A DNA stretch of 64,000 nt from NCBI GenBank assembly GCA_032718475.1, contig JAUCBJ010007751.1:1-64000 (forward strand), read 5' to 3'. Source of the stretch: Nemertoderma westbladi. Taxonomy: Eukaryota > Animalia > Xenacoelomorpha. Made by a program: the position numbers and the translations under genes. Below the pieces are notes generated by a model that saw nothing but the letters and a program-made list of their open reading frames with translations, did not search any database and was not told the origin of the DNA. Positions 10,613 through 47,016 of this stretch are shown one piece after another (within the stretch, counting starts at the first letter, position 1; each line of letters starts with the position of its first letter).

Positions 10613-10853
10613 TCAGATAGTTGTATTTGTAGAGAGTTCCCCTGTGTGCATTGCGTGTCTGTGTCTCATATGTCGCATGAAGCTGTCTTTTCTACCGAAT
10701 GACGCATTACAATACAGACATACACAGACCTTGACTCTCGTGTGGGTGTTTAAATGACGTCGCATATCATTGTTGGATTTGAACCGCCATTTGCACCGCG
10801 GCCAACTGCAAGCAAATCGTTTACGTTCAATCCAAACCGATTCCAATTCAAAA
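10613..10853 (-). CDS. Alternative terminal exon V6: pair of C2H2 zinc fingers
   Basis: Acceptor ttctttgaatatttgcag|T TTT (phase 2). Motif CSWPRC...HLNTH-TRVKVC-VCLYC...HMRHRH. Adds 79 aa. Confidence 0.85.
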
Positions 10854-10940
10854 CTGCAAATATTCAAAGAATAAATTTCACGTGAAAAACAACCACCAAA
10901 ATTGCAACAACGTTAAATAGTAGAAAATCTTTAAATTTTA

Positions 10941-11170
10941 TGTGGGGCGTAGTAAGCGAGCTAGCCAAACGGAGCGTACAACTGTTCAGCAGTTGTCTAT
11001 CGGTCAGTTGGTCTGTCTACCGGTCAGTCGGTCTGTCGGCCTGTAGTTCTGTCTGTCGGCAAAAGTTTGAAGGATAATAACTCAGTCCATCTTTCAAGAA
11101 AGAAAACCAATCTTGGCAGACATTTCTGTGTAGAGTCTGATATCGAATTTGCGTCGTGGGGCCACAGCAG
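10941..11170. mobile_element. Short interspersed repeat family, possibly DINE-1/Helentron-like; related copies near 100-275, 18665-20075, 20089-20390 and 34713-34760
   Basis: Shared GTGGGGCGAGCC / GCCCCAC termini, CTGTC microsatellite and a shared AATAACTCAGTC-like core. Confidence 0.45.
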
Positions 11171-11226
11171 TTCTCCAGTCTTCCGCTGGAGGGCTGGAGG
11201 CACCGATTGATATAGTGGTACCCATA

Positions 11227-12468
11227 GACAAGCTTGCTTACTTCATTCTGCCTAAAGGTCCCACCAACGTGTTTATGGTTTTGGTTGTTACCCGTATGAC
11301 AAGCTTGCTTACTTCATTCTACCTAAAGGTCCCACGAACGTGTTTATGGTTTTGGTTGTTACCTGTATGACAAGCTTGCTTACTTCATTCTACCTAAAGG
11401 TCCCACGAACGTGTTTATGGTTTTGGTTGTTACCGGTATGACAAGCTTGCTTACTTCATTCTACCTAAAGGTCCCACGAACGTGTTTATGGTTTTGGTTG
11501 TTACCCGTATGACAAGGTTGCTTACTTCATTCTACCTAAAGGTCCCACGAACGTGTTTATGGTTTTGGTTGTTACCGGTATGACAAGGTTGCTTACTTCA
11601 TTCTACCTAAAGGTCCCACGAACGTGTTTATGGTTTTGGTTGTTACCTGTATGACAAGCTTGCTTACTTCATTCTACCTAAAGGTCCCACGAACGTGTTT
11701 ATGGTTTTGGTTGTTATCGGTATGACAAGCTTGCTTACTTCATTCTACCTAAAGGTCCCACGAACGTGTTTATGGTTTTGGTTGTTACCGGTATGACAAG
11801 CTTGCTTACTTCATTCTACCTAAAGGTCCCACGAACGTGTTTATGGTTTTGGTTGTTACCCGTATTACAAGGTTGCTTACTTCATTCTACCTAAAGGTCC
11901 CACGAACGTGTTTATGGTTTTGGTTGTTACCGGTATGACAAGCTTGCTTACTTCATTCTACCTAAAGGTCCCACGAACGTGTTTATGGTTTTGGTTGTTA
12001 CCGGTATGACAAGCTTGCTTACTTCATTCTACCTAAAGGTCCCACGAACGTGTTTATGGTTTTGGTTGTTACCGGTATGACAAGCTTGCTTACTTCATTC
12101 TACCTAAAGGTCCCACGAACGTGTTTATGGTTTTGGTTGTTACCGGTATGACAAGCTTGCTTACTTCATTCTACCTAAAGGTCCCACAAACGTGTTTATG
12201 GTTTTGGTTGTTACCCGTATGACAAGCTTGCTTACTTCATTCTACCTAAAGGTCCCACGAACGTGTTTATGGTTTTGGTTGTTACCGGTATGACAAGCTT
12301 GCTTACTTCATTCTACCTAAAGGTCCCACGAACGTGTTTATGGTTTTGGTTGTTATCGGTATGACAAGCTTGCTTACTTCATTCTACCTAAAGGTCCCAC
12401 GAACGTGTTTATGGTTTTGGTTGTTACCCGTATGACAAGCTCGCTTACTTCATTCTAACTAAAGGTCC
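11227..12468. repeat. 71-bp tandem repeat, about 17.5 copies
   Basis: Unit GACAAGCTTGCTTACTTCATTCTACCTAAAGGTCCCACGAACGTGTTTATGGTTTTGGTTGTTACCGGTAT. Confidence 0.97.
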
Positions 12469-12689
12469 CGGTAGTGGTTGATTTAGTTTATTAAGTTTCT
12501 TTATATGTTTCCCAGGAGTTTTTGCTATATCCGATACACAAAGTAGGGAACGTTGTTACATTGCTAATTTTCTCTTTAAAATGGAATCAACATTTTGCCA
12601 AAAATATCACTAAAATATATCTCTCTCATAAAATGTTTTGCTAGCGGTTGCCGGACTGCCTTGGTACAAATGTATCGTTACTTAAGTAC

Positions 12690-15600
12690 TGTTACAGATG
12701 TACAGTTACAGATGTACCATTACAGATGTACCGTTAATATTACAGAAGTACCGTTACCATTACAGATGTACCGTTACCGTTGCAGATGTAGCGTTACAGA
12801 TGTACAGTTACAGATATACCGTTACAGATGTACCATTACCGTTACAGATGTACCATTACAGATGTACCGTTACAGATGTACCGTTATAGATGTACCGTTA
12901 CAGATGTACCGTTACAGATGTACCATTACAGATGTACCGTTACAGATGTACCTTTACAGATGTACCATTACAGATGTACCGTTACCGTTACAGATGTACC
13001 GACCGTTACAGATGTACCGTTACAGATGTACCGTTACAGATGTACCGTTACAGATGTACCGTTACAGATGTACAGTTACAGATGTACCGTTACAGATGTA
13101 CCATTACCGTTACAGATGTACCATTACAGATGTACCGTTACAGATGTACCGTTATAGATGTACCGTTACAGATGTACCGTTACAGATGTACCATTACAGA
13201 TGTACCGTTACAGATGTACCTTTACAGATGTACCATTACAGATGTACCGTTACCGTTACAGATGTACCGACCGTTACAGATGTACCGTTACAGATGTACC
13301 GTTACCGATGTACAGTTACAGATGTACCGCTACAGATGTACCGTTACCGATGTACAGTTACAGATGTACCGTTACAGATGTACCGTTACAGATGTACCGT
13401 TACAGATGTATAGTTACAGATGTACAGTTACAGATGTACCATTGCCGTTACAGATGTACCGTTACAGATGTACCATTACAGATGTACCGTTACAGATGTA
13501 CTGTTACAGATGTACCGTTATAGATATACCGTTACAGATGTACCGTTACAGATGTACAGTTACAGATGTACCATTACAGATGTACCGTTACCATTACAGA
13601 TGTACCGTTACCATTACAGATGTACCGTTACCGTTACAGATGTACCGTTACAGATGTACAGTTACAGATGTACCGTTACAGATGTACCGTTACCATTACA
13701 GATGTACCGTTACCATTACAGATGTACCGTTACCGTTACAGATGTACCGTTACAGATGTACAGTTACATATGTACCATTACAGATGTACCATTACAGATG
13801 TACCGTTACAGATGTACCGTTACAGATGTACCGTTATAGATGTACCGTTACAGATGTACCGTTACAGATGTACCGGTACAGATGTACCGTTACAGATGTA
13901 CCGTTACAGATGTACCGTTACCGTTACAGATGTACCGTTACCGTTATAGATGTACTGTTACCGTTACAGATGTACCGTTACCGTTACAGATGTACCGTTA
14001 CAGATGTACAGTTACATATGTACCATTACAGATGTACCGTTACAGAAGTACCATTACAGATGTACCGTTATAGATGTACCGTTACAGATGTACCGTTACA
14101 GATGTACCGTTACAGATGTACCGTTACAGATGTACCGTTACCATTACAGATGTACCGTTTCCGTTACAGATGTACCGTTACCGTTACAGATGTACCGTTA
14201 CCTTTACAGATGTACCTTTACAGATGTATCTTTACAGATGTACCATTACATATGTACCGTTACAGATGTACCGTTACCGTTACAGATGTACCTTTACAGA
14301 TGTACCTTTACAGATGTACCATTACATATGTACCGTTACAGATGTACCGTTACCGTTACAGATGTACCGTTACCGTTACAGATGTACCGTTACCGTTACA
14401 GATGTACCGTTGTCGTTACAGATGTACCGTTACCGTTACAGATGTACCGTTACCGTTACATATGTACCGTTACCTTTACAGATGTACCTTTACAGATGTA
14501 CCTTTACAGATGTACCATTACATATGTACCGTTACAGATGTACCGTTACCATTACAGATGTACCGTTTCCGTTACAGATGTACCGTTACCGTTACAGATA
14601 TACCGTTACCCTTACAGATGTACCTTTACAGATGTACCTTTAGAGATGTACCATTACATATGTACCGTTACAGATGTACCGTTACCGTTACAGATGTACC
14701 GTTACAGATGTACAGTTACATATGTACCATTACAGATGTACCATTACAGATGTACCGTTACAGATGTACCGTTACAGATGTACCGTTATAGATGTACCGT
14801 TACAGATGTACCGTTACAGATGTACCGGTACAGATGTACCGTTACAGATGTACCGTTACAGATGTACCGTTACCGTTACAGATGTACCGTTACCGTTATA
14901 GATGTACTGTTACCGTTACAGATGTACCGTTACCGTTACAGATGTACCGTTACAGATGTACAGTTACATATGTACCATTACAGATGTACCGTTACAGAAG
15001 TACCATTACAGATGTACCGTTATAGATGTACCGTTACAGATGTACCGTTACAGATGTACCGTTACAGATGTACCGTTACAGATGTACCGTTACCATTACA
15101 GATGTACCGTTTCCGTTACAGATGTACCGTTACCGTTACAGATGTACCGTTACCTTTACAGATGTACCTTTACAGATGTATCTTTACAGATGTACCATTA
15201 CATATGTACCGTTACAGATGTACCGTTACCGTTACAGATGTACCTTTACAGATGTACCTTTACAGATGTACCATTACATATGTACCGTTACAGATGTACC
15301 GTTACCGTTACAGATGTACCGTTACCGTTACAGATGTACCGTTACCGTTACAGATGTACCGTTGTCGTTACAGATGTACCGTTACCGTTACAGATGTACC
15401 GTTACCGTTACATATGTACCGTTACCTTTACAGATGTACCTTTACAGATGTACCTTTACAGATGTACCATTACATATGTACCGTTACAGATGTACCGTTA
15501 CCATTACAGATGTACCGTTTCCGTTACAGATGTACCGTTACCGTTACAGATATACCGTTACCCTTACAGATGTACCTTTACAGATGTACCTTTAGAGATG

Positions 15601-16870
15601 TACCATTACATATGTACCGTTACAGATGTACCGTTACCGTTACAGATGTACCTTTACAGATGTACCTTTACAGATGTACCATTACATATGTACCGTTACA
15701 GATGTACCGTTACCGTTACAGATGTACCGTTACCGTTACAGATGTACCGTTGCCGTTACAGATGTACCGTTACCGTTACAGATGTACCGTTACCGTTACA
15801 GATGAACCGTTACCGTTACAGATGTACCGTTTCCGTTACAGATGTACCGTTACCGTTACAGATGTACCGTTACCTTTACAGATGTACCTTTACAGATGTA
15901 CCTTTACAGATGTACCATTACATATGTACCGTTACAGATGTACCGTTACCGTTACAGATGTACCTTTACAGATGTACCTTTACAGATGTACCATTACATA
16001 TGTACCGTTACAGATGTACCGTTACCGTTACAGATGTACCGTTACCGTTACAGATGTACCGTTGCCGTTACAGATGTACCGTTACCGTTACAGATGTACC
16101 GTTACCGTTACATATGTACCATTACAGATGTACCTTTACAGATGTTCCTTTACAGATGTACCTTTACAGATGTACCATTACAGATGTACCTTTACAGATG
16201 TACCGTTACAGATGTACCTTTACAGATGTACCGTTACAGATGTACCGTTACCGTTACAGATGTACCTTTACAGATATACCATTACAGGTGTACCATTACA
16301 GATCATTACCATTACTGATGTTCCGTTACAGATGTATCGTTACCATTACATATGTACCATTGCAGATGTACCATTGCAGATGACCGTTACAGATGTACCA
16401 TTACAGATGTATCATTATCGTTACAGATGTACTGTACAGTTACCGTTACAAATGTACCATTCCAGATGTACCATTACCGTTACAGATGTACCGTTACTGT
16501 TACAGATGCATCGTTACAGATGTACAGTTACAGATGTACCGTTACCGTTACAGATGTACCGTTACAGATGTACCCTTACAGATGTACCTTTATAGATGTA
16601 CTGTTACAGATGTATCGTTACCCTTACAGATGTACTGTTACCATTACAGATGTACCGTTACCGTTGCAGATGTACCATTACCGTTACAAATGTCCTGTTA
16701 CCGTTACAGATGTACCGTTACAGGAGTACCGATACCGAGGTACCGTTACCGTTACAAATGTACCGTTACCGTTACAGATGTACCGGTACCGTTACAGATG
16801 TACCGTTACCGTTACAGATGTACCGCTACCGTTACAAATGTACCGTTACAGGTGTACAGTTTCAGATGTC
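12690..16870. repeat. 14-bp minisatellite (TACCGTTACAGATG) with 20-bp variants and higher-order duplications
   Basis: Tandem unit is visible. Identical ORF translations recur at a 952-bp offset (13840/14792, 13950/14902, 14074/15026). Confidence 0.97.
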
Positions 16871-18149: not shown

Positions 18150-18417
18150 CTAGTTGTTATTCATCTTATGTATAAAGTTATTTTCCATGCGAGGGATATT
18201 CAGTGATTGGCCGGAATGTTTATCTGCTACATGTTCACGCCAACGGTACCTCCTAGAGAACTGTAAGTCGCAATGAGGACAGACGAATGGTTTATCTTTA
18301 CTGTGAGTCACGAGATGACGGTTAAGGGCTCCTTGAAGCTTGAATCGCCATGGACACCAAGGACATCTGTGCGGTCTAAACGGGTCGCCATGGTAACCGG
18401 TGGCTCGTTGCCATTCG
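18150..18417 (-). CDS. Alternative terminal exon V5: pair of C2H2 zinc fingers
   Basis: Acceptor gtttgttatgttgcag|C GAA (phase 2). Motif CPWC...HLVTH-SKDKPF-VCPHC...HVADKH. Adds 88 aa. Confidence 0.85.
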
Positions 18418-20016: not shown

Positions 20017-20522
20017 AATTGTACCTCTACGCAAAGGCTCATATGGACTTACGCGCTGCGCGAAGTCCCCACGTACGTGTATATAGATAGGGGAGCGAAG
20101 CGAAGCCTTAGTAAATGGGAACCATTGACGAGTTGTCTGTCGTCGTCGACGTCTAATTTTTAATCGCTAATAACTCGTTCATTCCTTGATAAAATTAAAC
20201 CAAACTTGGTACGTATGTAGTCCGTCAAAAGTTTAGAAAGAATCTGAAGTTTGGTCCAAAAATCAGACAATCTGTCAGTCGGTAGCGGTAGTTTCAGGCT
20301 TTTTATAAAAAGTCGGACAATCATTGATGAAATTATAAATTAAACCAAACTTGGTAGATTTTCAATCTCGTGCTGCGCGAAGGCCCCACGAAAGTATCCT
20401 AATTACAAACGCCACTGATCACGTACAGTAAAACTGCTGTGATAAATAATCATCATATGTGCGCACAATAAATTTCCAGTTATTTAGCATTAGAAAGTGA
20501 AAGTAAATGTACTAGTAAACGA

Positions 20523-21264
20523 TCATAATCTTCGCAATATCTCAGGACAGTGGCGATTAACATTATCGTAGAGAGTTCGAAGAGGAATACCAAAATGGAC
20601 TGAAGCCTCGCGTATAGTCATTGTTCTAGAGGACAGATTCTCTAGCGCCATCTGGAGGTCATTCTGTGAATATGATTTCACTCGATACTCCCTCAGAACG
20701 CCTCTGGAGGTATCCCGTGTGGTAGTCTCGGGTGCATTAACGGAGGAGACACCGTCTATAGAGACAGACGCAGCGCTCAAAACCGGCGGTAATGTTGCCT
20801 CTTCCTTAACTTGGTTTAATGGCATCCACGACTCCCCCCTTGAGTACAATCCTCCCTCAGTTCCTCCCTGTTCTGCCCCTACTGCGCCCCTCCCCCGTCC
20901 ATCCACTGCTCCCACCCCTCCGCCCTCCACTGCCCCCAGCCCCCTTCCACCCACTCCACCCTCTATACTCCCCACTACACCAACCCCTCGCTCTTCCATT
21001 AAACCCACCCCTTCACCCACAGCGTCCGCTTCTTTCCGACGACCGAGCGTCGCGCCCACCCCGACCACACACCGTTTCTTCCTACGAGCGTCGGGTAACG
21101 GTAGACCGTGTTTCTGCACGTGGAAGTACAGCGTTCTGGATGGGATCTTATATCTGGCCGCGGCCGAAGGAACTGATAGTAACCCGGACTCAAGGGATCT
21201 CAACGCCATTACTAAATCCTCAAAGGTATACCGGTTCTTCCGACGCCGAAGTCGTATCTTCAGC
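20523..21264 (-). CDS. Alternative terminal exon V4: two pipsqueak-type (psq) helix-turn-helix domains separated by a Gly-rich linker
   Basis: Acceptor cctgttttgtctgtgcag|G CTG (phase 2). Motifs YTFEDLVMALRSLESGLLSVPSAAARYKIPSRTLY and YSQNDLQMALENLSSRTMTIREASVHFGIPLRTLYD. Adds 246 aa. Confidence 0.85.
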
Positions 21265-23599: not shown

Positions 23600-24960
23600 G
23601 AGGTTCATTGGATATTTAGGAGCCTAGGTTTTTCAGTTTTGATGGTGATACTTTCCTTAATTAGAAGGTTGTAATCAGTGGTAGCTCTACCTATAATTTT
23701 GAAATCTTTTTAAGAAATTTTGTGATCATGTACGATTGCATGATCACATGCCGTGGAATGACGAAGGCAGGCAACGGTTTTCCAGTTCGGGAAGACCTAC
23801 CCAAGTGTTCTGAGTCTCTAACCACTTAAATTTATAGAGGGTGAGGGGTCTCATCTCAGCGGAAGTCTGTCCTTAAACGGGAAAATAGTAGCTAGTCTCT
23901 TCGTTTGAATATTATCTAAGTCTACTTGTGGATAAGCGTGGGATAGAATTTGGAGACGTTGTGGGAGTTGGAAAGATAAGTTACGTAAGTATGGCAGAAT
24001 TAGAAAGATGGGCTTCTTTCTAACAGTATGCACTGCAGGCCTTGGAGGTCCAGCTAGTGTAACCTAATTTTGTGAAAAATAGTCCAAAGTAGTTTACTGG
24101 GATATTAGGACCAGGAAGTCATGTAGTTTCTGTGAAACTGACACCATGTGGAGCAAATTGAGAAACTGAGGAAAATTAAGGTGGCAATATGGGCAATATT
24201 AAACTTATGAGGAATAAATCTTGCATAGTTAGTGTATAGGCCTTTGAATGTTGCTTTGCGGTATACAGACGTAAGAAAGAGTTGTTGCACCTAGAAATTG
24301 TGACATCGAGAAAGGAGATGCTATTGTCATGTTCATAATCCGCTGTAAATTCGAAATTCCTTATGTTGATTATTCCAGTTTAGGAAAGCAGTGGGATGTT
24401 GGTGGTCTCGAAATAAAATGAAACTTTCATCTACGCACCGTCTGTAGAAAAGTGATTTAATGTTTGTGGGACAGTTGCTAGGCCATTTCGTCTCATAGTC
24501 GCAAAGGAACGCGTTAGCGAATGTAGGTCCAAGGGGGGCTTCCCGTAGATACACCGTCAATTTGGGCCACTCGAATTGCATTCGTTGAAAACAAACTCAA
24601 TATTTTTGGCAGCATAGCTTTATACTGCGTCCTCGTTAAGACATCTACGATTTTCTTACTTTTAAATATTTCTAGTAACATTACAATAGTTTCGTTCACA
24701 GGTATATTTGTAAAGAGACTTTTGACACGAAGCTAGCCATGTATACATTTTGGTTAACTTTGATATTTCTCTTTTACAAAAGAGAAGGTGTCCTTGATTG
24801 TAAACTCATTACAAGTCTGTGGGGACTGTTTTGGAAAAAGTAAATTTGCATGGTTATATTGGGGAGTACCAATAGCTGAGAGTACAGGCCGGTGTGGCAT
24901 CCCTGTTTATGTTCTATGGGGAGACCTGCATGCAAATACATAACAGTGGTGATGGTATCC
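23600..24960 (-). pseudogene. Decayed Penelope-like retroelement (RT plus GIY-YIG remnant)
   Basis: Frameshifted pieces GVSTGS/PLGPTFANAFL, YRRCVDE(SF), VYRKATF.GLYTNY..FIP, LPYL and FPFKDRLP. Confidence 0.75.
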
Positions 24961-25164
24961 ACAGGTTACTTAATATCGATACTATTATAATATCATAATA
25001 GGTCTTACATTACCTGTTTACTATTTCACTTTTGCTGTAGTCATTTCACCTGGGAAAAGCTTCAATGGAAGATATTTAATATTATATATAGGAATTATAG
25101 GATTGTCTTCGGGAAATGATTGTTTTATCATGATGACACGGACAAGCTTTGCCACAACGATAAT

Positions 25165-26463
25165 ATGATTAAGTATCATTACTACTTCATTGGGGTTGTC
25201 TTTATCAGTACCATTATTTTATGTGTTTATGTGTATTTCGTTCAAACGGTCTTCACAAAGTTTACCATTCAGCAGGTAGGAAGGTACAATCAGCTGTTAC
25301 AGTCAGATGGAAACAACTGCCCAAACAATGTCGAGGTTTTCGAACTTTTGGATTCTGATGAATTTCTCCTTAAACAAATCGATAGTGATTACAGTTGTCT
25401 GAAGGAAGCTACATACTTCCCGCACAGTCTGTCTATAGGAAAATGCGTGTGTCGGCCTGGTTGGAACGGACACCAGTGCAACATACCAGACATCATACTC
25501 AGCTCTACACTGCCAACCACAATCAAGCCTATTTTACGCAAAGTTCCCCGTCGTATTATCAATGCGTTCCCTATAAACATTGAATTCGAATTACTACAAG
25601 CGAGATTTCACGAACTTTCAGGATTAGTGGACGTCTATGTTATTCTAGAATCGAACAATACAATGAATGGATCGGCTAAACTGTTGTTTCTACGTGACAA
25701 ACTCAGAGAAGGTGTTTTCGGAAAAGAAGCCAAGAAGATATTATACGTTTGTTTGGATTATTTCCCCAAAGGTGCGGACAAAAATGGTTGGATTTCTGTT
25801 GACTTGCACCGAAATTACATCGGGGAGGCAGGATTGGCTGAACGACTACGCGGATGGCGTCATGATGATTGGTTTATTCTAAACGACGCGGACGAGATTC
25901 CGCGTCGTGAATTAGTTATGTTTCTTCGTAGTCATGACAATATTCCCTTTCCCGTCAGCATCCGCTACCAGACGACAAGCTTTGGATTCTTTTGGGGTAA
26001 CAAACGGGCTTCAGAACTACAAACTGCCGCTCCTATGGCCTATATGCGCGACATTATAAACTATAGATGTAATGAATTGAGGGGTTTAAATAAACAAAGT
26101 TTGAAAACTGCGGCATTAACGTCCTTCAAGAAGTCATTCCCTGAACTACCTGTATCGGCGTGGACCGCAGGAACTGGTCGCAGCTACGGCGGATGGCATT
26201 GCTCCTGGTGTTATAGAATAGAGGGAATACTATGGAAACTAGTGTCTGCACCTAACTGTGACTACCCCCGATGGGGAGATTACCCGGAGAAGCAGGACTT
26301 GGGATATATTCGCGGTTTGGTCGCTAAGGGCATGTGGTTCACTGGGGATCAGCAGGCCTATGTGGCCAGGGATCATACGGCTACCGATTATGCACCCAAA
26401 TACATTATGGAGCACAAAATAGAGTTATCCTACTTACTTTACAATCCATATACTAACACATAA
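25165..26463 (+). CDS. MGAT3: Beta-1,4-mannosyl-glycoprotein 4-beta-N-acetylglucosaminyltransferase (GT17, GnT-III-like); intronless CDS nested antisense in the TF gene
   Basis: N-terminal transmembrane segment after ATG 25165. Motifs CVCRPGWNG, PRRIINAF..EFELL..RFHEL...VDVYVILESN, DDWFILNDADEIP, GWHCSWC and KLVSAPN.DYPRWGDYPEK are characteristic of GT17. Confidence 0.9.
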   Translation: MIKYHYYFIGVVFISTIILCVYVYFVQTVFTKFTIQQVGRYNQLLQSDGNNCPNNVEVFELLDSDEFLLKQIDSDYSCLKEATYFPHSLSIGKCVCRPGWNGHQCNIPDIILSSTLPTTIKPILRKVPRRIINAFPINIEFELLQARFHELSGLVDVYVILESNNTMNGSAKLLFLRDKLREGVFGKEAKKILYVCLDYFPKGADKNGWISVDLHRNYIGEAGLAERLRGWRHDDWFILNDADEIPRRELVMFLRSHDNIPFPVSIRYQTTSFGFFWGNKRASELQTAAPMAYMRDIINYRCNELRGLNKQSLKTAALTSFKKSFPELPVSAWTAGTGRSYGGWHCSWCYRIEGILWKLVSAPNCDYPRWGDYPEKQDLGYIRGLVAKGMWFTGDQQAYVARDHTATDYAPKYIMEHKIELSYLLYNPYTNT

Positions 26464-27056: not shown

Positions 27057-28160
27057 TCACGACCCAGAAAGAAGATTGATTTTTACTTGTTTTTTGAAAT
27101 GCACCTTATTACTGCTATCGCGGATATCTCTCGAGAGGGAATTCCAGAGAAGAGGGCCCTGCATTGAAAGGGACTGATGCCGGACTTCCGTGTGCGTACT
27201 GGGTAAATGAAAAAGACCAGCGGAGGCAGAGCGAGTATTGTATGTGTGAACAGATGATGCTTTAGTGAATAAGTGAGAAAGAGGATGAGAAGGATTGTGG
27301 TAAATTTCATACATTAGTATGAGGACCTGGTATTTATACAGACGATCTAGTGGTAAAATGCGTAGCTGCTGATAAATAGAAAAAGATGAGGACTGATAGT
27401 GGCTGAAGGTAATACATCGGACAATTTTATTGAGTTTGGTTTTGAGGGGACGAGTAATAGATTTGAATGTATTTCCCCATACTATCAACCCGTAAAAAAT
27501 ATAGGGGTAGGTAGACTAACGTATAGAATAGAGTTCGCATTATATGAGCTGGGACAATATGGCGTAGTTTATAGAATAATCCTCCACTCTTGGATATTTT
27601 TTTCAAGATATGGCTGATGTGTTCCCTATATGATAAATTGGAATCTATTAATATACCTAGATATTTAGATGTTGTTGTGGATCTAATTGTTTTGTTATTA
27701 ATGATTATAGGTGGTGGCGGTATTTCTGACTTTGATTTTGAGAATATTGTATATTCAGTCTTGTCAGTATTTAGAGTTAGTTTGTTTTCAGTTAGCCATT
27801 CGGATAACAGTTTGAGTTCAGAATTCATATAGTCGATTAGTGGAGAGATATTTCGATTGTTGCACATCAGTGAAGTGTCATCGGCAAATAAGGTTACTAA
27901 TAGGGATGTGCAGTTTGGGAGGTCATTGATGTACAGTAGAAATAAAATCGGCCCGAGGACCGAACCCTGCGGGATACCACAGATTATAGACCTAGAAGAT
28001 GATAAAACATTATCTACTGAAACGAATTGATGTCTATTACATAGATAACTAGAAATGAGTGCTAGAGGACTTCCGCGGATACCATATATTGGGAGCTTCT
28101 TTAATAGAATCGAATGGTCGAGGGTATCAAACGCCTTTTTTAGGTCTAGATACAGTACAG
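27057..28160 (-). mobile_element. 5'-truncated L2/CR1-clade LINE (RT C-terminus), frameshifted
   Basis: YLDLKKAFDTLDHSILLKKL, GIPQGSVLGPILFLLYINDLP, LFADDT, KYLGILIDSNL; continues in a second frame (IVWGNT...GPLLWNSL). Confidence 0.9.
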
Positions 28161-30035: not shown

Positions 30036-30333
30036 TCATTTGTTTTTCGATATAAATCGATGACTTAGATAGGCCCAGGTTTCATCATCCAGACTATCGT
30101 TATGGGTGACCCAGGCGTGTTTAACAATATTAGTGGTCCCGGATCCCCAATAGAGTGACTTGTTGCAGACCAGACATCGAACTCGGCGTGAATCCTCGGC
30201 CATCAGCGTGTAATACTTCCAGACCAGGTTGGTAGCCTTCAGCGGTATAGTTTGGCCGCTAGCACGAATGCCGTCCAACACAGATATCACTCGGTGTTCT
30301 GAGACAACCCCAATTGGCCTTGTACGCACCGTA
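30036..30333 (-). CDS. Alternative terminal exon V3: BED zinc finger
   Basis: Acceptor ttttcgtattgttttag|T ACG (phase 2). Motif NLVWKYY...VRCLVC...GTTNIVKHAWVTH. Adds 98 aa. Confidence 0.85.
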
Positions 30334-31340: not shown

Positions 31341-31440
31341 TTCGGGGCGTTATACTTGTACATATCCACATATAATTAAATATAATTAATAAAAAATATA
31401 ATTATTGGTGCTGGTATATTATCTATATGGCATATCAAAT

Positions 31441-31714
31441 TATTTGTATTTAATTTAAAATTAATTATTTGTATTTAATTTTAAATTAATTATTTGTATT
31501 TAATTTTAAATTAATTATTTGTATTTAATTTTAAATTAATTATTTGTATTTAATTTTAAATTAATTATTTGTATTTAATTTTAAATTAATTATTTGTATT
31601 TAATTTTAAATTAATTATTTGTATTTAATTTTAAATTAATTATTTGTATTTAATTTTAAATTAATTATTTGTATTTAATTTTAAATTAATTATTTGTATT
31701 TAATTTTAAATTAA
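31441..31714. repeat. 25-bp AT-rich tandem repeat, about 11 copies (TATTTGTATTTAATTTTAAATTAAT)
   Basis: Direct tandem repeat. Confidence 0.95.
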
Positions 31715-32023: not shown

Positions 32024-32243
32024 CTAAAAGTTTGACTTCTTAATGAATACTGAGTGCTGCGACTTTAGGTGTTTAACCAGATGGGAAGTGTGGCCATTCA
32101 ACACTTTCTGACAGAGAAGACAACGTGCCGGCCCATCAGCTGTACCCCGAGGTGCATCCAACAGCGTGAAGTACATCCAGGCGCCACTTCGCGCGCGCGT
32201 AGGAACCACATGATGGCTGCCATTCCCAGCAATCGCGTCGTAA
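32024..32243 (-). CDS. Alternative terminal exon V2: BED zinc finger
   Basis: Acceptor tgtttccgtttctatag|T TAC (phase 2). Motif RSGAWMYF...ARCLLC...TSHLVKHLKSQH. Adds 72 aa. Confidence 0.85.
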
Positions 32244-32704: not shown

Positions 32705-33011
32705 TCAATCATTCGATACAGACTTCAATCCGCAATAATGAACACTATTCTTCGGGCGCGCGGCCTCTATTGTTATAGAGTGCCGATATCTCAGATGGGC
32801 AGTAAGGTTGGAGGTGTGGCGACCATAGGCTATGTATTTATTGCACATCAGACAGACAACACGTTCGCTTTGGTCTGGCGACGTGAGCGTAAAATAATTC
32901 CATACCGAACTGACGGCCCTCGGTGGTACTAAATGTGGGGTTGATGATTGGTTCCCGGTAAACATCGCATCCGCATTGTCATGGTTACTACGAATCGGCG
33001 TCACAAGGCAT
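32705..33011 (-). CDS. Alternative terminal exon V1: BED zinc finger
   Basis: Acceptor ttcctccctgtag|A TGC (phase 2). Motif SSVWNYF...CLMC...TSNLTAHLRYRH is a BED finger. Adds 101 aa. Confidence 0.85.
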
Positions 33012-33110: not shown

Positions 33111-33642
33111 TCGTCATGTGGCAATAAAAAGGCTCCATCTCAAATTTTAAGATTTCAAAAATTAAGTTATTCATATTCATTTCATATAAAATTCTGCATC
33201 AGATGATATAATTTTTGATAGTGGGTTCGGGTTGTTATTCAAATTATCCCATTTAAATCATTTGATTTAAATGAAATGTAGAAAATTCAATAAAACTGTA
33301 AATTAGAATATTGACGAATTCCAAGATAGCTCCTTATTAACGAATTCATTAAAAAGGCTCTATCTTAGAACTTATATATAGTATCCTAAGATAGCCCCTT
33401 TCCAATGAATTTATTAGAAGTATGCTATCTCTCTCTATACAGTTTCTGAGATAGCTCATTTTTAATGAATTCTTTAGAAAGGCGCTATCTTAGTTATTCT
33501 TATACAGTTTTAGAGATAGCGCCTTTTTAATGAAATTCATTAGAAAGGCGCTATCTTAGAAATGTGTTGACCAATTACATAAGTTCAATTTCCACAGTTT
33601 GTAAAGAAACTGAGATAGCGTCTATTTATTACCACATGACGA
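33111..33642. mobile_element. MITE with TIRs and internal GATAGC subrepeats
   Basis: TCGTCATGTGGCAATAAA ... TTTATTACCACATGACGA inverted termini; no clear TSD. Confidence 0.7.
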
Positions 33643-36770: not shown

Positions 36771-37298
36771 GGGGGGGGGGGGGGGTACCCCCTCAGGAGA
36801 TTTGTTTTTAACAGCTCTAACTTCGTGTTGCAGGTCAATATCACTGATGTGGTGTTCAGCCAACATGGGGAAGGCCAAAGAGCAACAAAAATTGAAATTT
36901 TAAATTTTTTTGTGTCCCTCTAGTCTAGTCTACTAGTCGCTTAATATTTATACAAATTTTTGAAACCAACATTTTTTGGACTCAGCACCTTCGAATCTAC
37001 AAAAATTATCCAGACGATTTTATAAATTATTAATTTTTAAATTAATTAATTAAAATTAATAAAATCAATTAAATTTCAAAAAAAATTGAAAGAAAAGTTT
37101 CCAAAAAGTGCTGGAAAATTTTTCAAGATGTCCAGAAAACCTTTCAAACGAGTCATAAATTATCGAATTTGGGTGTAAAACGGCGGAGGAGTAGTATTTT
37201 GAAAAATTGAAATATCGTGAAATGTAATTCCGAGATAATTTGCTTTCAAGTTTGAACCTTCCCGCTCAAACCTGACTGTCTGTAGTCTGTTAATCGGT

Positions 37299-38687
37299 CA
37301 GTTCCCAAGAAGGGCAACCTAACACTCTATGGTTCTTTTCGGGGAATCTCATTGATCTCGATTGCTGCAAAGCTATACAATAGAATTCTATTAAATCGCA
37401 TCAGGGATCCCATTGAGAGACTGCTCCTTGGAAATCAGAATGGGTTCCGTAAAGGTCGTGGGACAATGGAGCCCATTTTGGCACTTATAAGGATAATTGA
37501 AGAGTTATCAAAAAAGAAAGACATACTGGCTGTTATCTTTGTTGACTTCTTCAAGGCCTTTGATTCAGTTTCTCGCTCACGTATGTTAAGCATACTTTCA
37601 TTATATGGGATTCCTGATGAAATTATTGCAGCAATCAGATCAGTATACGATGGTTCGACAACATTTGTGTCTACTGTTGACGGTGACACAGAACCATTTG
37701 AAGTGTTATGGGGCGTCCTCCAGGGAGACACACTTGCACCATTCTTGTTCATAATTGTGGTTGACTATGTTCTACGCATGTCCTTAGATCATTATAATGA
37801 TGATGGGGTGTTGATAACTACACCTACTGGCTCCAGAAGTCGAGGAAATCCTGCCAAGTACCTCACTGATCTAGACTTTGCTGATGACTTAGGAGTACTC
37901 TCAGAATCACTAGAGGGAGCCCAACGGCTCCTCAGCTCATTAGAACATGCTGCTTCTAGTGTTGGTCTTTTTATTAACTCCAGAAAGACCAAAATTTTGA
38001 CAGTTAACTTTGAAAGTCCTCAGCAAGTCTCTGATCGGATGAGCATAAGCTCAAAAGATGGTATGCTTGAGCATGTGGATGACTTCTGTTACCTGGGATC
38101 ATGGATCCGGAAGTCAGGTGAGGACCTTCGAATACGTAAGGGAAAGGCATGGGCAGCCTTGAATAGGCTCTCCAAGATTTGGAAGTCAACGAGAATTAAT
38201 CGGAAACTTAAGGTCCGATTATTTAGAGCAGCAGTAGTTCCAGTACTCCTCTATGGGAGTCCATGCTGGGCTCTAACTGCTGAGGACACCAAATCTCTGG
38301 ATGGCACATTCACAAGAATGCTACGCCGGGTTCATTGTGTCAAGTACAATGCACACATCTCCAACCAGACACTATATAACATTGGAGGTGTCTCATTGGT
38401 TCCCCCAAGCTTGACACTAGAACAAAATCGCCTCCGCTTTGCAGGACATTGCTTTCGCCGTGAGGACCAGCCAGTGCATAATCGTGTACTTTGGCAGCCT
38501 CATGGAGTGAATAAGCATGGTGGACAGCCCATGACTTTCTTGAGACGCATCTTAAAGGTAGATGGCATCTTGTAGATGCGGATGATCTAGCAAATGTCAT
38601 GGGTGATACAGAGTTGTGGCGGTGCAATTTTGTCGATAAGCCGGCACAGCATTCTTAAAAATGCAGCTGCAATGCAGCATGCCGATC
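37299..38687 (+). mobile_element. 5'-truncated RTE-clade LINE copy
   Basis: RT motifs QNGFRKGR, FVDFFKAFDSV, GVLQGDTLAPFLF, LDFADD; near-identical to 58018-59406. Confidence 0.92.
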
Positions 38688-38699
38688 CTGGTAGAGAAC

Positions 38700-39166: not shown

Positions 39167-42100
39167 GGTACTATAGGACAAGGGAACGAGGTACTATAGG
39201 ACAAGGGAACGAGGTACTATAGGACAAGGGAACGAGGTACTATAGGATAAGGGAACGAGGTACTATATGACAAGGGAACGAGGTACTATAGAACAAGGGA
39301 ACGACGTACTATAGGACAAGGGAACGACGTACTATAGGACAAGGGAACGACGTACTATAGGACAACGGAACGAGGTAATATAGGACAAGGGAACGAGGTA
39401 CTATAAGACAAGGGAACGAGGTACTATAGGACAAGGGAACGAGGTATTATAGGACAAGGGAACGAGGTACTATAGGATAAGGGAACGAGGTACTATATGA
39501 CAAGGGAACGAGGTACTATAGAACAAGGGAACGACGTACTATAGGACAAGGGAAAGACGTACTATAGGACAACGGAACGAGGTACTATAGGACAAGGGAA
39601 CGAGGTACTATAGGACAAGGGAACGAGGTACTATAGGATAAGGGAACGAGGTACTATAGGACAAGGGAACGACGTACTATAGGACAACGGAACGAGGTAC
39701 TATAGGACAAGGGAACGAGGTACTATAGGACAACGGAACGAGGTACTATAGGACAAGGGAACGAGGTACTATAGGACAAGGGAACGAGGTACTATAGGAC
39801 AAGGGAACGAGGTACTATAGGACAAGGGAACGAGGTACTATAGGACAAGGGAACGAGGTACTATAGGACAAGGGAACGAGGTACTATAGGACAACGGAAC
39901 GAGGTACTATAGGACAAGGGAACGAGGTACTATAGGACAAGGGAACGACGTACTATAGGACAAGGGAAAGAGGTACTATGGGACAAGGGAACGAGGTACT
40001 ATAGGACAAGGGAACGAGGTACTATAGGACAAGGGAACGACGTACTATAGGACAAGGGAACGAGGTACTATAGGACAAGGGAACGAGGTACTATAGGACA
40101 AGGGGACGACGTACTATAGGACAACGGAACGAGGTACTATAGGACAAGGGAACGAGGTACTATAGGACAACGGAACGAGGTACTATAGGACAAGGGAACG
40201 ACGTACTATAGGACAAGGGAACGAGGTACTATAGGACAAGGGAACGAGGTACTATAGGACAAGGGAACGAGGTACTATAGGACAAGGGAACGACGTACTA
40301 TAGGACAAGGGAACGACGTACTATAGGACAAGGGAACGAGGTACTATAGGACAAGGGAACGAGGTACTATAGGACAACGGAACGAGGTACTATAGGACAA
40401 GGGAACGAGGTACTATAGGACAAGGGAACGAGGTACTATAGGACAAGGGAACGAGGTACTATAGGACAAGGGAACGAGGTACTATAGGACAAGGGAACGA
40501 GGTACTATAGGACAAGGGAACGAGGTACTATAGGACAAGGGAACGAGGTACTATAGGACAACGGAACGAGGTACTATAGGACAAGGGAACGAGGTACTAT
40601 AGGACAAGGGAACGAGGTACTATGGGACAAGGGAACGAGGTACTATAGGACAAGGGAACGAGGTACTATAGGACAACGGAACGAGGTACTATAGGACAAG
40701 GGAACGAGGTACTATAGGACAAGGGAACGAGGTACTATAGGACAACGGAACGAGGTACTATAGGACAAGGGAACGAGGTACTATAGGACAAGGGAACGAG
40801 GTACTATAGGACAAGGGAACGAGGTACTATAGGACAAGGGAACGAGGTACTATAGGACAAGGGAACGAGGTACTATAGGACAAGGGAACGAGGTACTATA
40901 GGACAAGGGAACGAGGTACTATAGGACAAGGGAACGAGGTACTATAGGACAAGGGAACGAGGTACTATAGGACAAGGGAACGAGGTACTATAGGACAAGG
41001 GAACGAGGTACTATAGGACAAGGGAACGAGGTACTATAGGACAAGGGAACGAGGTACTATAGGACAAGGGAACGAGGTACTATAGGACAAGGGAACGAGG
41101 TACTATAGGACAAGGGAACGAGGTACTATAGGACAAGGGAACGAGGTACTATAGGACAAGGGAACGAGGTACTATAGGACAAGGGAACGAGGTACTATAG
41201 GACAAGGGAACGACGTACTATAGGACAAGGGAACGAGGTACTATAGGACAAGGGAACGAGGTAGTATAGGACACGGGAACGAGGTACTATAGGACAAGGG
41301 AACGAGGTAGTATAGGACACGGGAACGAGGTACTATAGGACAACGGAACGAGGTAGTATAGGACACGGGAACGAGGTACTATAGGACAAGGGAACGAGGT
41401 ACTATAGGACAAGGGAACGAGGTACTATAGGACAAGGGAACGAGGTACTATAGGACAAGGGAACGAGGTACTATAGGACAAGGGAACGAGGTACTATAGG
41501 ACAAGGGAACGAGGTACTATAGGACAAGGGAACGAGGTAGTATAGGACACGGGAACGAGGTACTATAGGACAAGGGAACGAGGTACTATAGGACAAGGGA
41601 ACGAGGTACTATAGGACAACGGAACGAGGTACTATAGGACAAGGGAACGACGTACTATAGGACAAGGGAACGAGGTACTATAGGACAAGGGAACGAGGTA
41701 CTATAGGACAAGGGAACGAGGTACTATAGGACAAGGGAACGAGGTACTATAGGACAAGGGAACGAGGTACTATAGGACAAGGGAACGAGGTACTATAGGA
41801 CAAGGGAACGAGGTACTATAGGACAAGGGAACGAGGTACTATAGGACAAGGGAACGAGGTACTATAGGACAAGGGAACGAGGTACTATAGGACAAGGGAA
41901 CGAGGTACTATATGACAAGGGAACGAGGTACTATAGGACAAGGGAACGACGTACTATAGGACAAGGGAACGACGTACTATAGGACAAGGGAACGACGTAC
42001 TATAGGACAACGGAACGAGGTACTATAGGACAAGGGAACGAGGTACTATAGGACAAGGGAACGAGGTATTATAGGACAAGGCAACGAGGTACTATAGGGC

Positions 42101-44421
42101 AAGGGAACGACGTACTATAGGACAACGGAACGACGTACTATAGGACAAGGGAACGACGTACTATAGGACAAGGGAACGACGTACTATAGGACAACGGAAC
42201 GAGGTACTATAGGACAAGGGAACGACGTACTATAGGACAAGGGAACGACGTACTATAGGACAAGGGAACGAGGTACTATAGGACAAGGGAACGAGGTACT
42301 ATAGGACAAGGGAACGAGGTACTATAGGACAAGGGAACGAGGTACTATAGGACAAGGGAACGAGGTACTATAGGATAAGGGAACGAGGTACTATATGACA
42401 AGGGAACGAGGTACTATAGAACAAGGGAACGACGTACTATAGGACAAGGGAACGACGTACTATAGGACAAGGGAACGACGTACTATAGGACAAGGGAACG
42501 ACGTACTATAGGACAACGGAACGAGGTACTATAGGACAAGGGAACGAGGTACTATAGGACAAGGGAACGAGGTATTATAGGACAAGGCAACGAGGTACTA
42601 TAGGACAAGGGAACGAGGTACTATAGGACAAGGGAACGAGGTACTATAGGACAAGGGAACGAGGTACTATAGGACAAGGGAACGAGGTACTATAGGACAA
42701 GGGAACGAGGTACTATAGGACAAGGGAACGAGGTACTATAGGACAAGGGAACGAGGTACTATAGGACAACGGAACGAGGTACTATAGGACAAGGGAACGA
42801 GGTACTATAGGGCAAGGGAACGAGGTACTATAGGACAAGGGAACGAGGTACTATAGGACAAGGGAACGAGGTACTATAGGACAAGGGAACGAGGTACTAT
42901 AGGACAAGGGAACGAGGTACTATAGGACAAGGGAACGAGGTACTATAGGACAAGGGAACGAGGTATTATAGGACAAGGGAACGAGGTACTATAGGATAAG
43001 GGAACGAGGTACTATATGACAAGGGAACGAGGTACTATAGAACAAGGGAACGACGTACTATAGGACAAGGGAACGACGTACTATAGGACAACGGAACGAG
43101 GTACTACAGGACAAGGGAACGAGGTACTATAGGACAAGGGAACGAGGTACTATAGGATAAGGGAACGAGGTACTATAGGACAAGGGAACGACGTACTATA
43201 GGACAACGGAACGAGGTACTATAGGACAAGGGAACGAGGTACTATAGGACAACGGAACGAGGTACTATAGGACAAGGGAACGAGGTACTATGGGACAAGG
43301 GAACGAGGTACTATAGGACAAGGGAAAGAGGTACTATAGGACAACGGAACGAGGTACTATAGGACAAGGGAACGAGGTACTATAGGACAAGGGAACGAGG
43401 TACTATATGACAAGGGAACGAGGTACTATAGGACAAGGGAACGACGTACTATAGGACAAGGGAACGACGTACTATAGGACAAGGGAACGACGTACTATAG
43501 GACAAGGGAACGAGGTACTATAGGACAACGGAACGAGGTACTATAGGACAAGGGAACGAGGTACTATAGGACAACGGAACGAGGTACTATAGGACAACGG
43601 AACGAGGTACTATAGGACAAGGGAACGAGGTACTATAGGACAAGGGAACGAGGTACTATAGGACACGGGAACGAGGTACTATAGGACAAGGGAACGAGGT
43701 ACTATAGGACAAGGGAACGAGGTACTATAGGACAAGGGAACGACGTACTATAGGACAAGGGAACGACGTACTATAGGACAAGGGGACGAGGTACTATAGG
43801 ACACGGGAACGAGGTACTATAGGACAAGGGAACGAGGTACTATAGGACAAGGGAACGACGTACTATAGGACAAGGGGACGAGGTACTATAGGACAAGGGA
43901 ACGAGGTACTATAGGACAAGGGAACGACGTACTATAGGACAAGGGGACGAGGTACTATAGGACACGGGAACGAGGTACTATAGGACAACGGAACGAGGTA
44001 CTATAGGACAAGGGAACGAGGTACTATAGGACAAGGGAACGAGGTACTATAGGACAAGGGAACGAGGTACTATAGGATAAGGGAACGAGGTACTATATGA
44101 CAAGGGAACGAGGTACTATATGACACGGGAACGAGGTAGTATAGGACACGGGAACGAGGTACTATAGGACAAGGGAACGAGGTACTATAGGACAAGGGAA
44201 CGAGGTACTATAGGACAACGGAACGAGGTAGTATAGGACACGGGAACGAGGTACTATAGGACAAGGGAACGAGGTACTATAGGACAAGGGAACGAGGTAC
44301 TATAGGACAAGGGAACGAGGTACTATAGGATAAGGGAACGAGGTACTATATGACAAGGGAACGAGGTACTATAGAACAAGGGAACGACGTACTATAGGAC
44401 AAGGGAACGAGGTACTATAGG
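39167..44421. repeat. 23-bp minisatellite, about 228 copies (GGTACTATAGGACAAGGGAACGA)
   Basis: Direct tandem repeat with recurrent point variants. Confidence 0.98.
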
Positions 44422-44791
44422 TATTTAACATATCTGAAATATGGAAATTATGAGAATTGGTTTAAATTTTCTTTTTCATATCCTTAGGTATTTGTACTGT
44501 GCAATTTTTTTTGTTCATGTACGAAAATAATAATAATAAAGGTGCGCAGCAAAGAGGGGGAATAATGCAAGGGAAAATAAAAATTATCAGACACCCAAAG
44601 CGAATCCGCGTAAAAGGCAGCTCGGCACCAGGTAGTGGCGTTAAACCGTATCCATATACGGAATGGGGATAGCTCGATGAAACTCAGTGAGACTTTATAT
44701 AACGTGCTAAACCTAAACATGGAGTGAGTCGGTACGCTAGTACTAGTAGTAAACTAGTAGTGAATGCCGCTACAATGAATATATAACTTAC

Positions 44792-44882
44792 CCGCCAATG
44801 TTGCTCCCGTCCAATGTATTTGTCTCCCTAGACGTCCCTTGTAAGACAGACTGGTCCAGGTTGGACTCATCCAAAGTGAAAT
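44792..44882 (-). CDS. Common coding exon 3, the last constant exon (DFTLDESNLDQSVLQGTSRETNTLDGSNIGG)
   Basis: Acceptor ttttcttatcgattttatcag|AT (phase 1, matches exon 2). Open frame, then strong donor GG|GTAAGT (phase 2). 91 nt, so too short for the ORF track. Confidence 0.8.
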
Positions 44883-45373
44883 CTGATAAAATCGATAAGA
44901 AAATAGTCAATAAGAGTAAATACAACGCGATACGGAACAAGTGAATTTCAATATTTGGTTCCGGTAGATATTCTCTGTTGAGATTCTGTCACATTCGGGA
45001 TCCCCATATTGTTCTACAAATCTTTAACAATATTGTTTCATAGTGCTAAGTTATAGTTTTAGAGGATAAAGGTTAAGGGATAGGAGCAGGCTACAGTGGC
45101 ACACGGCACGTTAGTCTAACCAAAACAATAAACGATAGCCAAAAGAACAGGTTATATTTAAATTCTTGACAAGACGACCCCTGATGGCCTGGCCCCTTTA
45201 GGACCAACGTGATAGAATATTTGGAATCCTCGGAACGCAAGCTTTCTAATGATAATTAAATAACGACGAGTCAAGAATGGCGGCGAATAATCAGATCGCG
45301 AAGTCAACAGCAAATCTTTAAATACCGACACTATTCCGTTACTCTAGAACTACCTTAGTATATCACCGCTAAC

Positions 45374-45708
45374 CTTGAATGCCACTACTGTTCGGTAAAT
45401 CTTGGTTTATTCCACTCAGACGAACTGCGGAATCGTTATAGACTGGATCCATCGTAGAGGAATCCAGGTCCTCACTCGGCGACATAAACTGTTCGACTCC
45501 CGTCTCTCCGCCAACGCAATCCATCGGGGATTCCGATTTAATCATGAGAACCTCGCCGGGTTGGGTTCCGAGTAGATTCCCTTCCAGTGGATTCGGATCA
45601 CCTTTAGTCGGGTCGGGGGTCAGCTCCTCTTGGGTAGACACCATGGAGACGGACTGCTGGCGTCTCAGCTGTAAACTCGGCGTCTTTCGACCACGGTGTA
45701 TACGGAAT
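45374..45708 (-). CDS. Common coding exon 2 (RFRIHRGRKTPSLQ...VLMIKSESPMD...NSSGIQ)
   Basis: Acceptor tattatcttctag|A TTC (phase 2, matches exon 1). Donor CAAG|GTTAGC (phase 1). Acidic linker with an IKSE SUMO-type motif typical of transcription-factor linkers. Confidence 0.8.
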
Positions 45709-46468
45709 CTAGAAGATAATAGAGTATAAAACCGATTTCGGACAATATTAGGCCTATACAGGGTGTCTCTCGTAATTTTGGAATAACTCTGGTAAATAAA
45801 CCAAAACTAATTGATTGTATGTTAATCGGAAGATGATCTCAATTTAAAGCTAAATAATTCCAGAGATGCATATTGTTTTTGGCAGCCTTTCTCCAGGATA
45901 TACTACCGGCACCTCATACATTACTTGGAATTATTTTAACTCTGTGGTGCCTTATAGCATAGAGGAGTGCACATGCACACTTTTAACATACCGGTACTGT
46001 ATAAAGCAATAATTACCTGATTACACGAACTATAACTAACCTACCAGACCAGTATCCTATGAAGTTTAATGTTCATTTTAAGGTCTACCTATGTCATTAT
46101 ACTCAAATTCAATTAAATTCAACCAAATTATGTATGGAAATCATTAGAGTTCATTGGAGTCTAGGGAACTATAGAACAAGACCATACCGATAGAACCTGC
46201 TAATTAAAATATTGAAAATAACTAGGTATTAGTATAGGTAAAGGTACCGCACATTGTTAGGAATTATAATAAATGTTTCAGTTATCCGCGTAGCGGAAAT
46301 CGTTTACCCGGCTTTGAGCTTTACCACGTCCCGCACTGCAGCATACCAATATGATATTATAAACAGTAACACAAACCTTAGTCAAGTTTTACTAACACCA
46401 AACATTAGGGCCTGGTGCCTGGCCTACTATATACTATAGACATAAACCACAAAAGTGAAATAGCTAAC

Positions 46469-47016
46469 CTCGATCTATTATGCATAGAGTATATATTTCG
46501 CGTGTTGGTTTGTCGACCAGCGGCACCGAATCTAAGATTAGGGGAGTTTCCCCCGGTAAGTGAAGGGCTCCTTAAGCGGGGATGGGAAAAGGCCAGATTG
46601 TCCGGGATTCCGGGATGTGAAGAATGGACTGGTGGGGGATCCAATGGAAACTCCTGGTCTTGGGACGTAAACGAAGTCGACATACCGGGATCGTCATTAA
46701 GGAAAGAATATGATTGGTCGTAATGTTCTTGCGATATTTGTTCATTGTGAATGACCTCTCCGGATACATTAGTATCGGAATTACTCGCAATGTTCTCTGA
46801 GTCACTAGTCAACAATTTCTGTAGCCAGGATGTGATACGCCCGGCATTGCAACTGGATGTCACGTATTCATCGAGGAAGGCCGGGTCGTTATTAAGGTAA
46901 TCCCTTAAAAAGCTACGCATAAACAAACCATTCTCTAGACAGAGGTTGATGAAAGATGTCTTTGGGATCAAAAACGATGACTCAAAATCAAGAGTATCTG
47001 CATGCCCTTGTATCAT
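46469..47016 (-). CDS. Common coding exon 1 (MIQGHADTLDFESSFLIPK...SMHNRSR)
   Basis: ATG at 47016 with an in-frame upstream TAA at 47085-47083. Donor AG|GTTAGC at 46469/46468, phase 2 (548 nt). Confidence 0.75.

Follow-up and report, generated by a model that had tools for sequence, protein, structure and literature searches.

The stretch of 64,000 nucleotides (nt) from contig JAUCBJ010007751.1 of Nemertoderma westbladi, hereafter the window, contains a candidate cassette gene, in which a constant N-terminal part (the head) would be spliced to one of several alternative DNA-binding ends. The gene occupies the minus strand from 47016 to 10613 (47016..10613) and consists of three constant coding exons followed by six variable last exons, located at a distance of 11.8 to 33.9 kb from the common donor at 44792 (Table 1). 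The window has a G+C content of 41%, its CpG dinucleotides are barely depleted (observed/expected ratio of 0.88), and it carries spliceosomal signals, remnants of long interspersed nuclear elements (LINEs) and long terminal repeat (LTR) retrotransposons, and large satellites. The latter are very homogeneous, add up to about 20 kb and lie mostly in introns of the cassette gene. No Rfam family was matched in the window, and an exact-sequence look-up of four window proteins in a protein collection gave no match.

Table 1. Positions of the exons of the cassette gene and of the other main features of the window (aa, amino acids; UTR, untranslated region; ORF, open reading frame; a slash marks the splice junction).
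Feature	Positions	Strand	Details
Probable 5′ UTR intron, 73 nt	47144..47216	-	donor CCG/GTAGGT after 47217; acceptor TTGCAG/ before 47143
Constant coding exon 1	46469..47016	-	548 nt; ATG 47016; exit phase 2
Constant coding exon 2	45374..45708	-	335 nt; phase 2 in, phase 1 out
Constant coding exon 3	44792..44882	-	91 nt; phase 1 in, phase 2 out; common donor CGG/GTAAGT
Variable exon 1	32705..33011	-	zf-BED PF02892, 45.4 bits, E 8.5e-12; 101 aa + stop; acceptor rank 13/2458
Variable exon 2	32024..32243	-	zf-BED PF02892, 34.5 bits, E 2.1e-08; 72 aa + stop; acceptor rank 10/2458
Variable exon 3	30036..30333	-	zf-BED PF02892, 29.5 bits, E 7.5e-07; 98 aa + stop; acceptor rank 27/2458
Variable exon 4	20523..21264	-	HTH_psq PF05225, 43.6 bits, E 2.4e-11; 246 aa + stop; acceptor rank 17/2458
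Variable exon 5	18150..18417	-	two C2H2 fingers, PF00096 E 3.1e-09; 88 aa + stop; acceptor rank 107/2458 (weakest)
Variable exon 6	10613..10853	-	two C2H2 fingers, PF00096 E 5.6e-08; 79 aa + stop; acceptor rank 33/2458
23-bp satellite, 228 copies	39167..44421		intron right behind the common donor; Tandem Repeats Finder
25-bp satellite, 11 copies	31438-31714
14/20-bp satellite, 200-300 copies	12665-16869
71-bp satellite, 17 copies	11227-12469
35-bp satellite, 257 copies, 99% homogeneous	837-9825		9 kb, beyond the last variable exon
MGAT3-like glycosyltransferase (GT17), single-exon ORF	25165..26463	+	Pfam Glyco_transf_17 E 1.9e-22

The constant head comprises 324 codons plus two nucleotides, is free of stops across its joins and ends at GG/GTAAGT on the minus strand. 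In this respect, a head of about 325 amino acids built from three phase-compatible exons and leaving in phase 2 at 44792, as described in the initial annotation, was confirmed in its coordinates. Acceptors are ranked here among the 2458 minus-strand AGs, and donors among the 2582 minus-strand GTs, that lie outside satellites. The frame of constant exon 1 is stop-free over 225 amino acids, a length reached in none of 1000 shuffles of the region, and its donor (GAG/GTTAGC) ranks 93; constant exon 2 lies in a 145-aa open frame, with an acceptor of rank 42 and a donor (AAG/GTTAGC) of rank 79. Constant exon 3 has an acceptor of rank 14 and a donor of rank 4, the top donor below coordinate 56000, and unspliced read-through past this common donor hits a stop immediately (GGG TAA). 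Between the common donor and the variable array, neither a good internal exon nor an alternative coding head was found. Upstream of the ATG, the segment 47216-47144 is a probable 5′ UTR intron (acceptor of rank 2, donor score of 4.78). The 127 nt from its acceptor to the ATG contain two in-frame stops and no earlier ATG, which makes 47016 the likely start.

Each of the six variable acceptors is an AG behind a pyrimidine tract that opens, in phase 2, a frame running to a stop. The six same-strand acceptors proposed initially (33011, 32243, 30333, 21264, 18417 and 10853) were all borne out, including when phase was disregarded. The claim that every one of these exons carries a complete DNA-binding module plus a stop also stood when HMMER was run against Pfam: all six exons pass the curated cut-offs (20.6 bits for zf-BED, 20.4 for HTH_psq and 25.2 for zf-C2H2), with their Cys/His ligands or helix-turn-helix (HTH) intact, and zf-C2H2 scores of 37.2 and 33.3 bits for variable exons 5 and 6, respectively. 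The BED profile also matches the BED structures of ZBED1, ZBED2 and Hermes. The two HTH repeats of the psq type in variable exon 4 share 41% identity across 41 aa, flank a G/V/E-rich spacer and, when scored singly, reach 21.3 and 28.7 bits, both over the cut-off; the match of this exon to the LCoR structure 2cob is weak (E 0.18), and among 7968 candidate longer proteins the exon found no match, which is weak evidence. The three BED exons are 38-49% identical to one another and the two C2H2 pairs 38%. Since ligands, frames and acceptors are all intact in spite of such low identity, the variable exons would seem to have been under long selection. The G+C content of each exon (0.44-0.54) exceeds that of its own upstream 300 nt (0.29-0.44), and an AATAAA or ATTAAA lies within 800 nt past the stop in five of the six, for instance ATTAAA at 96 nt in variable exon 3 and at 97 nt in variable exon 6.

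No further variable exon was detected in the window by a Cys/His pattern (all frames of at least 30 aa, outside large satellites), by tblastn of the six exons, or by Pfam in 94 short and most longer minus-strand frames. A frame starting at 20166 (RLKIRRRRR) was considered as a psq duplicate and rejected as a mere look-alike, and the final 836 bases at the left edge, past the 35-bp satellite, contain no domain. The left-edge repeat itself, which by its skew looked like a telomere, is this same satellite. A 250-bp imperfect palindrome (77%) of 65-bp units, located at 33319-33565, precedes the first variable acceptor by 300 nt and is possibly a miniature inverted-repeat transposable element (MITE)-like sequence or an RNA hairpin.

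Splice phase and the origin of the variable exons

Since the acceptors could have been picked to fit, every AG was scored without regard to phase; of those lying between the domain and the preceding in-frame stop, the top one was the claimed phase-2 acceptor in six of six exons. As a control, the best early AG was taken in 93 other open frames of at least 70 aa, and fell in phase 0, 1 and 2 in 24, 25 and 44 of them, respectively. A null model based on phase only gives about 0.47 per exon and 0.011 for the six, so that the figure of (1/3)^6 proposed at the outset was too small. Only 11 of the 93 controls combined phase 2 with a strength at least equal to that of the weakest real acceptor. Taking phase and strength together, the null is about 3e-6 for six independent exons and about 2e-3 for three founding events, one per family; these figures are rough because the strength threshold was set after the fact, at the weakest real exon. 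Under either count, the phase match of the six exons is more than chance. In the reverse direction, the 68 strong acceptors found downstream of the common donor and outside satellites yield 13 acceptor-frame pairs open for at least 60 aa: the six variable exons, five pairs inside or antisense to retroelement ORFs, and two within the psq exon.

These observations bear on the explanation that we consider the least credible, namely that each of the six frames is a small gene in its own right, or a domesticated or decayed transposon fragment, unrelated to the head. The window is rich in mobile DNA, and transposases of the hAT and pogo/Tigger types commonly carry BED and psq domains (PMC1702500). 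However, all six exons share one strand and phase-2 acceptors, and their zinc ligands and frames are all intact despite a mutual identity of 35-49%. Start codons of their own would speak for separate genes, as had been recognized initially; five of the six exons have no in-frame Met ahead of the domain, whereas variable exon 1 has one. Pairs of C2H2 fingers are, to our knowledge, not typical of hAT or pogo/Tigger transposases, which also counts against unrelated fragments. Besides, each BED frame ends within about 25 codons of the finger, and no hAT catalytic or dimerisation region follows. No transposase body was found in the window, nor any exact inverted repeat of at least 12 nt with arms in the 1 kb before and the 2.5 kb after any of the six exons (decayed repeats would escape this search), and none of the repeats dispersed within the window contains any of the six exons.

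An alignment search for BED in metagenomes retained two loci of 88 candidates, neither of which contains a cassette: one is a hAT transposase (L001, 542 + 114 aa), and the other is closely related to it and truncated where its contig ends. Against the window, the L001 transposase matches only the BED finger (residues 16-66). The BED exons are 38-54% identical to the two transposon-type fingers from these metagenome contigs. Variable exon 3 is closer to the L001 finger (27 of 50 residues) than to its neighbours (20 of 51 and 18 of 47), a comparison that is biased because L001 was retrieved with a pattern built from the BED exons of the cassette itself; this closeness may hint at a separate capture of the exon, and also speaks for the exons being unrelated fragments. 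Elsewhere in the same material, a transposase-like frame pair (L002, 2454-4849; THAP-like start and 690-aa body), which we take to be of the P-element type, adjoins a BED-encoding element on the same contig.

The constant head

The first 75 residues of the head are hydrophobic (39%) and predicted to be helical, while the remainder is a low-complexity linker, acidic and S/T/P/G-rich in the part encoded by exon 2. The linker contains one IKSE motif at residue 239, presumably a SUMO-site consensus. No Pfam family passed E 0.1 with constant exon 1, and a BTB domain is absent from the head (Pfam) and from the 112 minus-strand frames of at least 36 aa between 44420 and 64000. A search for homologues at E 0.001 likewise found none among 115 longer proteins sharing words with the head, for residues 1-150 among 1.84 billion cluster representatives, or in metagenome and viral contigs.

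A weak lead nevertheless points to SAM domains. The first match of the head in the ESM Atlas is SAM_NCD1 (score of 0.84, 125 of 256 features shared), below the 0.9 threshold for a lead, and eight of its ten best named matches belong to one clan. Low-confidence single-sequence models of residues 8-80 give five helices, the last being the longest, with predicted local distance difference test (pLDDT) values of 57 and 65 and predicted template modelling (pTM) scores of 0.36 and 0.43. On the other hand, no SAM family matched in Pfam at E up to 10, although the HMMER filters drop weak matches; Foldseek with the models found nothing at E 0.001; the VIA-align matches all stayed below Z 5, with no SAM entry among the 50 listed; and by sequence every PDB match was at E 0.89 or worse. 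The best fold match (Z 4.7, root-mean-square deviation of 4.4 over 67 residues) is to an unrelated helical domain. A homodimer prediction for residues 8-80 scored 0.02, with a mark of 0.32 and an uncertain fold. Derivation of the head from a SAM domain is a tentative proposal, which we regard as possible but less likely than not.

It has also to be considered that the cassette is real and the head is different or longer, for example with BTB exons beyond the window, or that only part of the exons is used. This would fit with the weak first two donors and the existence of a shorter in-phase head (see below), and with the lack of any detected homologue. A probable upstream exon (donor after 47217) precedes the head, and the 17 kb upstream consist mostly of mobile elements and could conceal a long intron. 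Nonetheless, owing to the two in-frame stops ahead of the ATG, upstream exons entering at 47143 would be noncoding in this frame; the frames scanned up to the window edge contain no BTB, and no donor below 56000 surpasses the one at 44792. A different head or a reduced set of exons is improbable, though less so than unrelated fragments.

Several points weigh against a single gene with the structure given in Table 1. Every join between the head and an end is inferred from genomic sequence, and the splice-site scores use generic weights taken from general knowledge, not trained on N. westbladi. Constant exons 1 and 2 end in modest donors (both GTTAGC). An alternative donor for exon 1 at 46686 (phase 1) outscores the one at 46469 and, spliced straight to exon 3, gives a head of 140 aa that still exits in phase 2, so that the exact head is uncertain while its exit phase is certain. 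With no homologue detected, the coding status of the head rests on frame length and splice signals; its residues 184-203 differ from the surrounding linker (30% K/R), and the SAM lead is weak, with 0.84 as the best Atlas score. At the other end of the gene, a YTRAY branch motif occurs within 70 nt for only three of the six variable exons, variable exon 1 has not only the in-frame Met mentioned above but also no AATAAA or ATTAAA before the next acceptor, 462 nt further on, and variable exon 3 resembles the hAT finger more than its neighbours in the biased comparison.

Neighbouring genes and mobile elements

The only conserved gene in the window is the MGAT3-like ORF, which is nested antisense between variable exons 3 and 4 and is not part of the cassette. 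Its best match is a fish MGAT3 (43% identical over 76%); the frame is intact, its first Met is codon 16, and it encodes a hydrophobic segment at the N-terminus as well as a short stretch resembling EGF. The rest of the surroundings is largely occupied by mobile DNA. A LINE reverse-transcriptase element, which we take to be RTE-like, is present in three copies (37286-38694, 57890-59424 and 51272-51644) and has been recently active, since the copies are 96-98% identical. The copy at 57890 breaks an LTR retrotransposon remnant on the minus strand (55400-57917), with a DUF1759 gag, a zinc knuckle and an aspartyl protease, presumably of the BEL/Pao type. Also on the minus strand are a second LINE reverse-transcriptase remnant in two frames (27057-28272), which we assume to be CR1/L2-like, and a frameshifted reverse-transcriptase remnant without a Pfam match (23800-24970), whose motifs resemble, in our judgement, those of Penelope-like elements. 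A short frame on the plus strand (50379-50657), 3 kb upstream of the cassette gene and without a Pfam match, looks to us like the DDE region of pogo/Tigger transposases, a superfamily that carries psq-type HTH domains. Three overlapping ORFs of 249, 172 and 105 aa at 52188-53690 (minus strand) have no Pfam, PHROG or PDB match, and their compact layout suggests an unclassified mobile element. Finally, long ORFs of 203, 251 and 280 aa on the minus strand at 59405-62727 match no family; they contain coiled-coil or alanine-rich repeats and are possibly gag-like.

Proposed mechanism and comparison with known systems

Taken together, we consider it likely, from the genomic layout, that the locus is one animal gene in which three shared exons precede six alternative last exons and are spliced to one of these at a time, giving six transcription factor isoforms. 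The proposal of a constant head with six alternative ends, following the logic of lola, survived the phase-blind, start-codon and transposon tests, but in its original form it overstated the number of unrelated families and gave too small a chance figure, and its six or more isoforms with different targets are predictions. According to this model, a single promoter upstream of 47217 would drive one transcript; after constant exon 3, the spliceosome would choose one of the six acceptors, and polyadenylation behind the chosen exon would be coupled to that choice. Each isoform would combine the same head with a different predicted reader (three BED, one double psq-HTH and two C2H2 pairs). The isoforms are predicted to bind different target sites, since the recognition residues of the C2H2 ends differ (at helix positions -1, 2, 3 and 6, LGAR and RYRE in variable exon 5 against SNDR and RDSR in variable exon 6) and the BED fingers are so little alike. 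More tentatively, the first 75 residues of the head may serve for interaction with other proteins or for self-association, possibly as a divergent SAM domain, in the role of BTB; by analogy with the BTB of lola, isoforms would pair or recruit cofactors through the head.

The joining of the exons could also take place in trans, from separately promoted variable exons in the style of mod(mdg4), instead of in cis across 12-34 kb. All mod(mdg4) mRNAs are made in this way and lola uses a mixture of cis- and trans-splicing (PMC13490949), and the long satellite arrays and the antisense gene within the array would be compatible with it. However, in a crude test the intron from 44791 to 33011 showed no additional U1-type GGTRAG site, and cis-splicing suffices because all six exons lie downstream of the head on the same strand. 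We judge trans-splicing to be quite improbable, to a degree between that of a different head and that of unrelated fragments.

As for its origin, the array probably grew by recruitment of DNA-binding exons followed by local duplication. The BED and psq exons probably come from hAT- and pogo-type transposases. The exon order groups like with like (three BED, the psq, two C2H2), which is the pattern expected from tandem exon duplication; like-grouped FLYWCH exons have also been reported for mod(mdg4) (PMC4667647). A more ambitious scenario, which we rate as rather unlikely, is an independent, non-BTB invention of the lola strategy, in which a SAM-like head would have captured ends from at least two transposon superfamilies together with host C2H2 pairs. 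Isoforms with different DNA-binding folds would then co-assemble into mixed complexes through their shared, lineage-specific head.

If the proposed structure is true, this design would have been reached repeatedly in animals, and it would illustrate a route from transposase domains to transcription factors. Gene predictors would likely keep one isoform of such a locus or call its ends transposon debris, and thus the transcription factor repertoires of little-studied animals may be undercounted. As far as we know, a design of one head with many DNA-binding ends is textbook knowledge only for the arthropod TTK-BTB genes. Our literature search found no paper that describes such a design at a locus without BTB, although most subscription journals were outside the search, and absence from print is thus not shown.

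Among the known systems, the closest are lola, with 20 isoforms of which 17 have differing C2H2 ends, and mod(mdg4), with at least 30 isoforms that mostly carry FLYWCH and, like those of lola, share a BTB head; TTK factors usually have one or two C2H2 fingers (PMC11426971). In its genomic layout, the N. westbladi locus resembles them in having constant N-terminal exons followed by several alternative last exons that agree in phase and carry short DNA-binding modules. It differs from both in lacking FLYWCH and, within the head and the upstream part of the window, BTB, in having six ends instead of 20-30, and in mixing BED, psq-HTH and C2H2 in one locus; besides, trans-splicing is not demanded by the layout. 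Because the defining BTB is absent, the gene is an analogue of lola and mod(mdg4) that stands outside their family.

Insect POZ + C2H2 proteins have repeatedly acquired transposase-derived PSQ HTH and BED domains, and the BED finger has been proposed to derive from a C2H2 finger (Babu et al., PMC1702500). On this proposal BED and C2H2 share a core and the three modules amount to two folds, instead of the three structurally unrelated families of the initial annotation. Like pipsqueak (psq HTH), fruitless (BED finger) and mod(mdg4) (FLYWCH), the cassette gene would place transposase-type modules on a shared head, but in insect BTB factors such modules are spread over separate genes, whereas here they would be alternative ends of one gene with another head. 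In vertebrates, transposase DNA-binding domains have become joined to host regulatory heads mainly through alternative splicing, with an acceptor located before the domain (bioRxiv 10.1101/2020.05.07.082677). The putative join described here would be similar to those of KRABINER, SETMAR and CSB-PGBD3, in which a transposase-type DNA-binding domain is spliced to a host head. Those cases are, however, single captures, often from an identifiable transposon, while the present locus has six ends and no KRAB, no catalytic domain or terminal repeat left, and no source element found. In summary, the design principle is already known, and the modules are those that insects also use; what would be new, as judged from the gene structure, is that an orphan head lacking BTB follows the logic of lola and that a single locus combines zinc-finger with helix-turn-helix ends.

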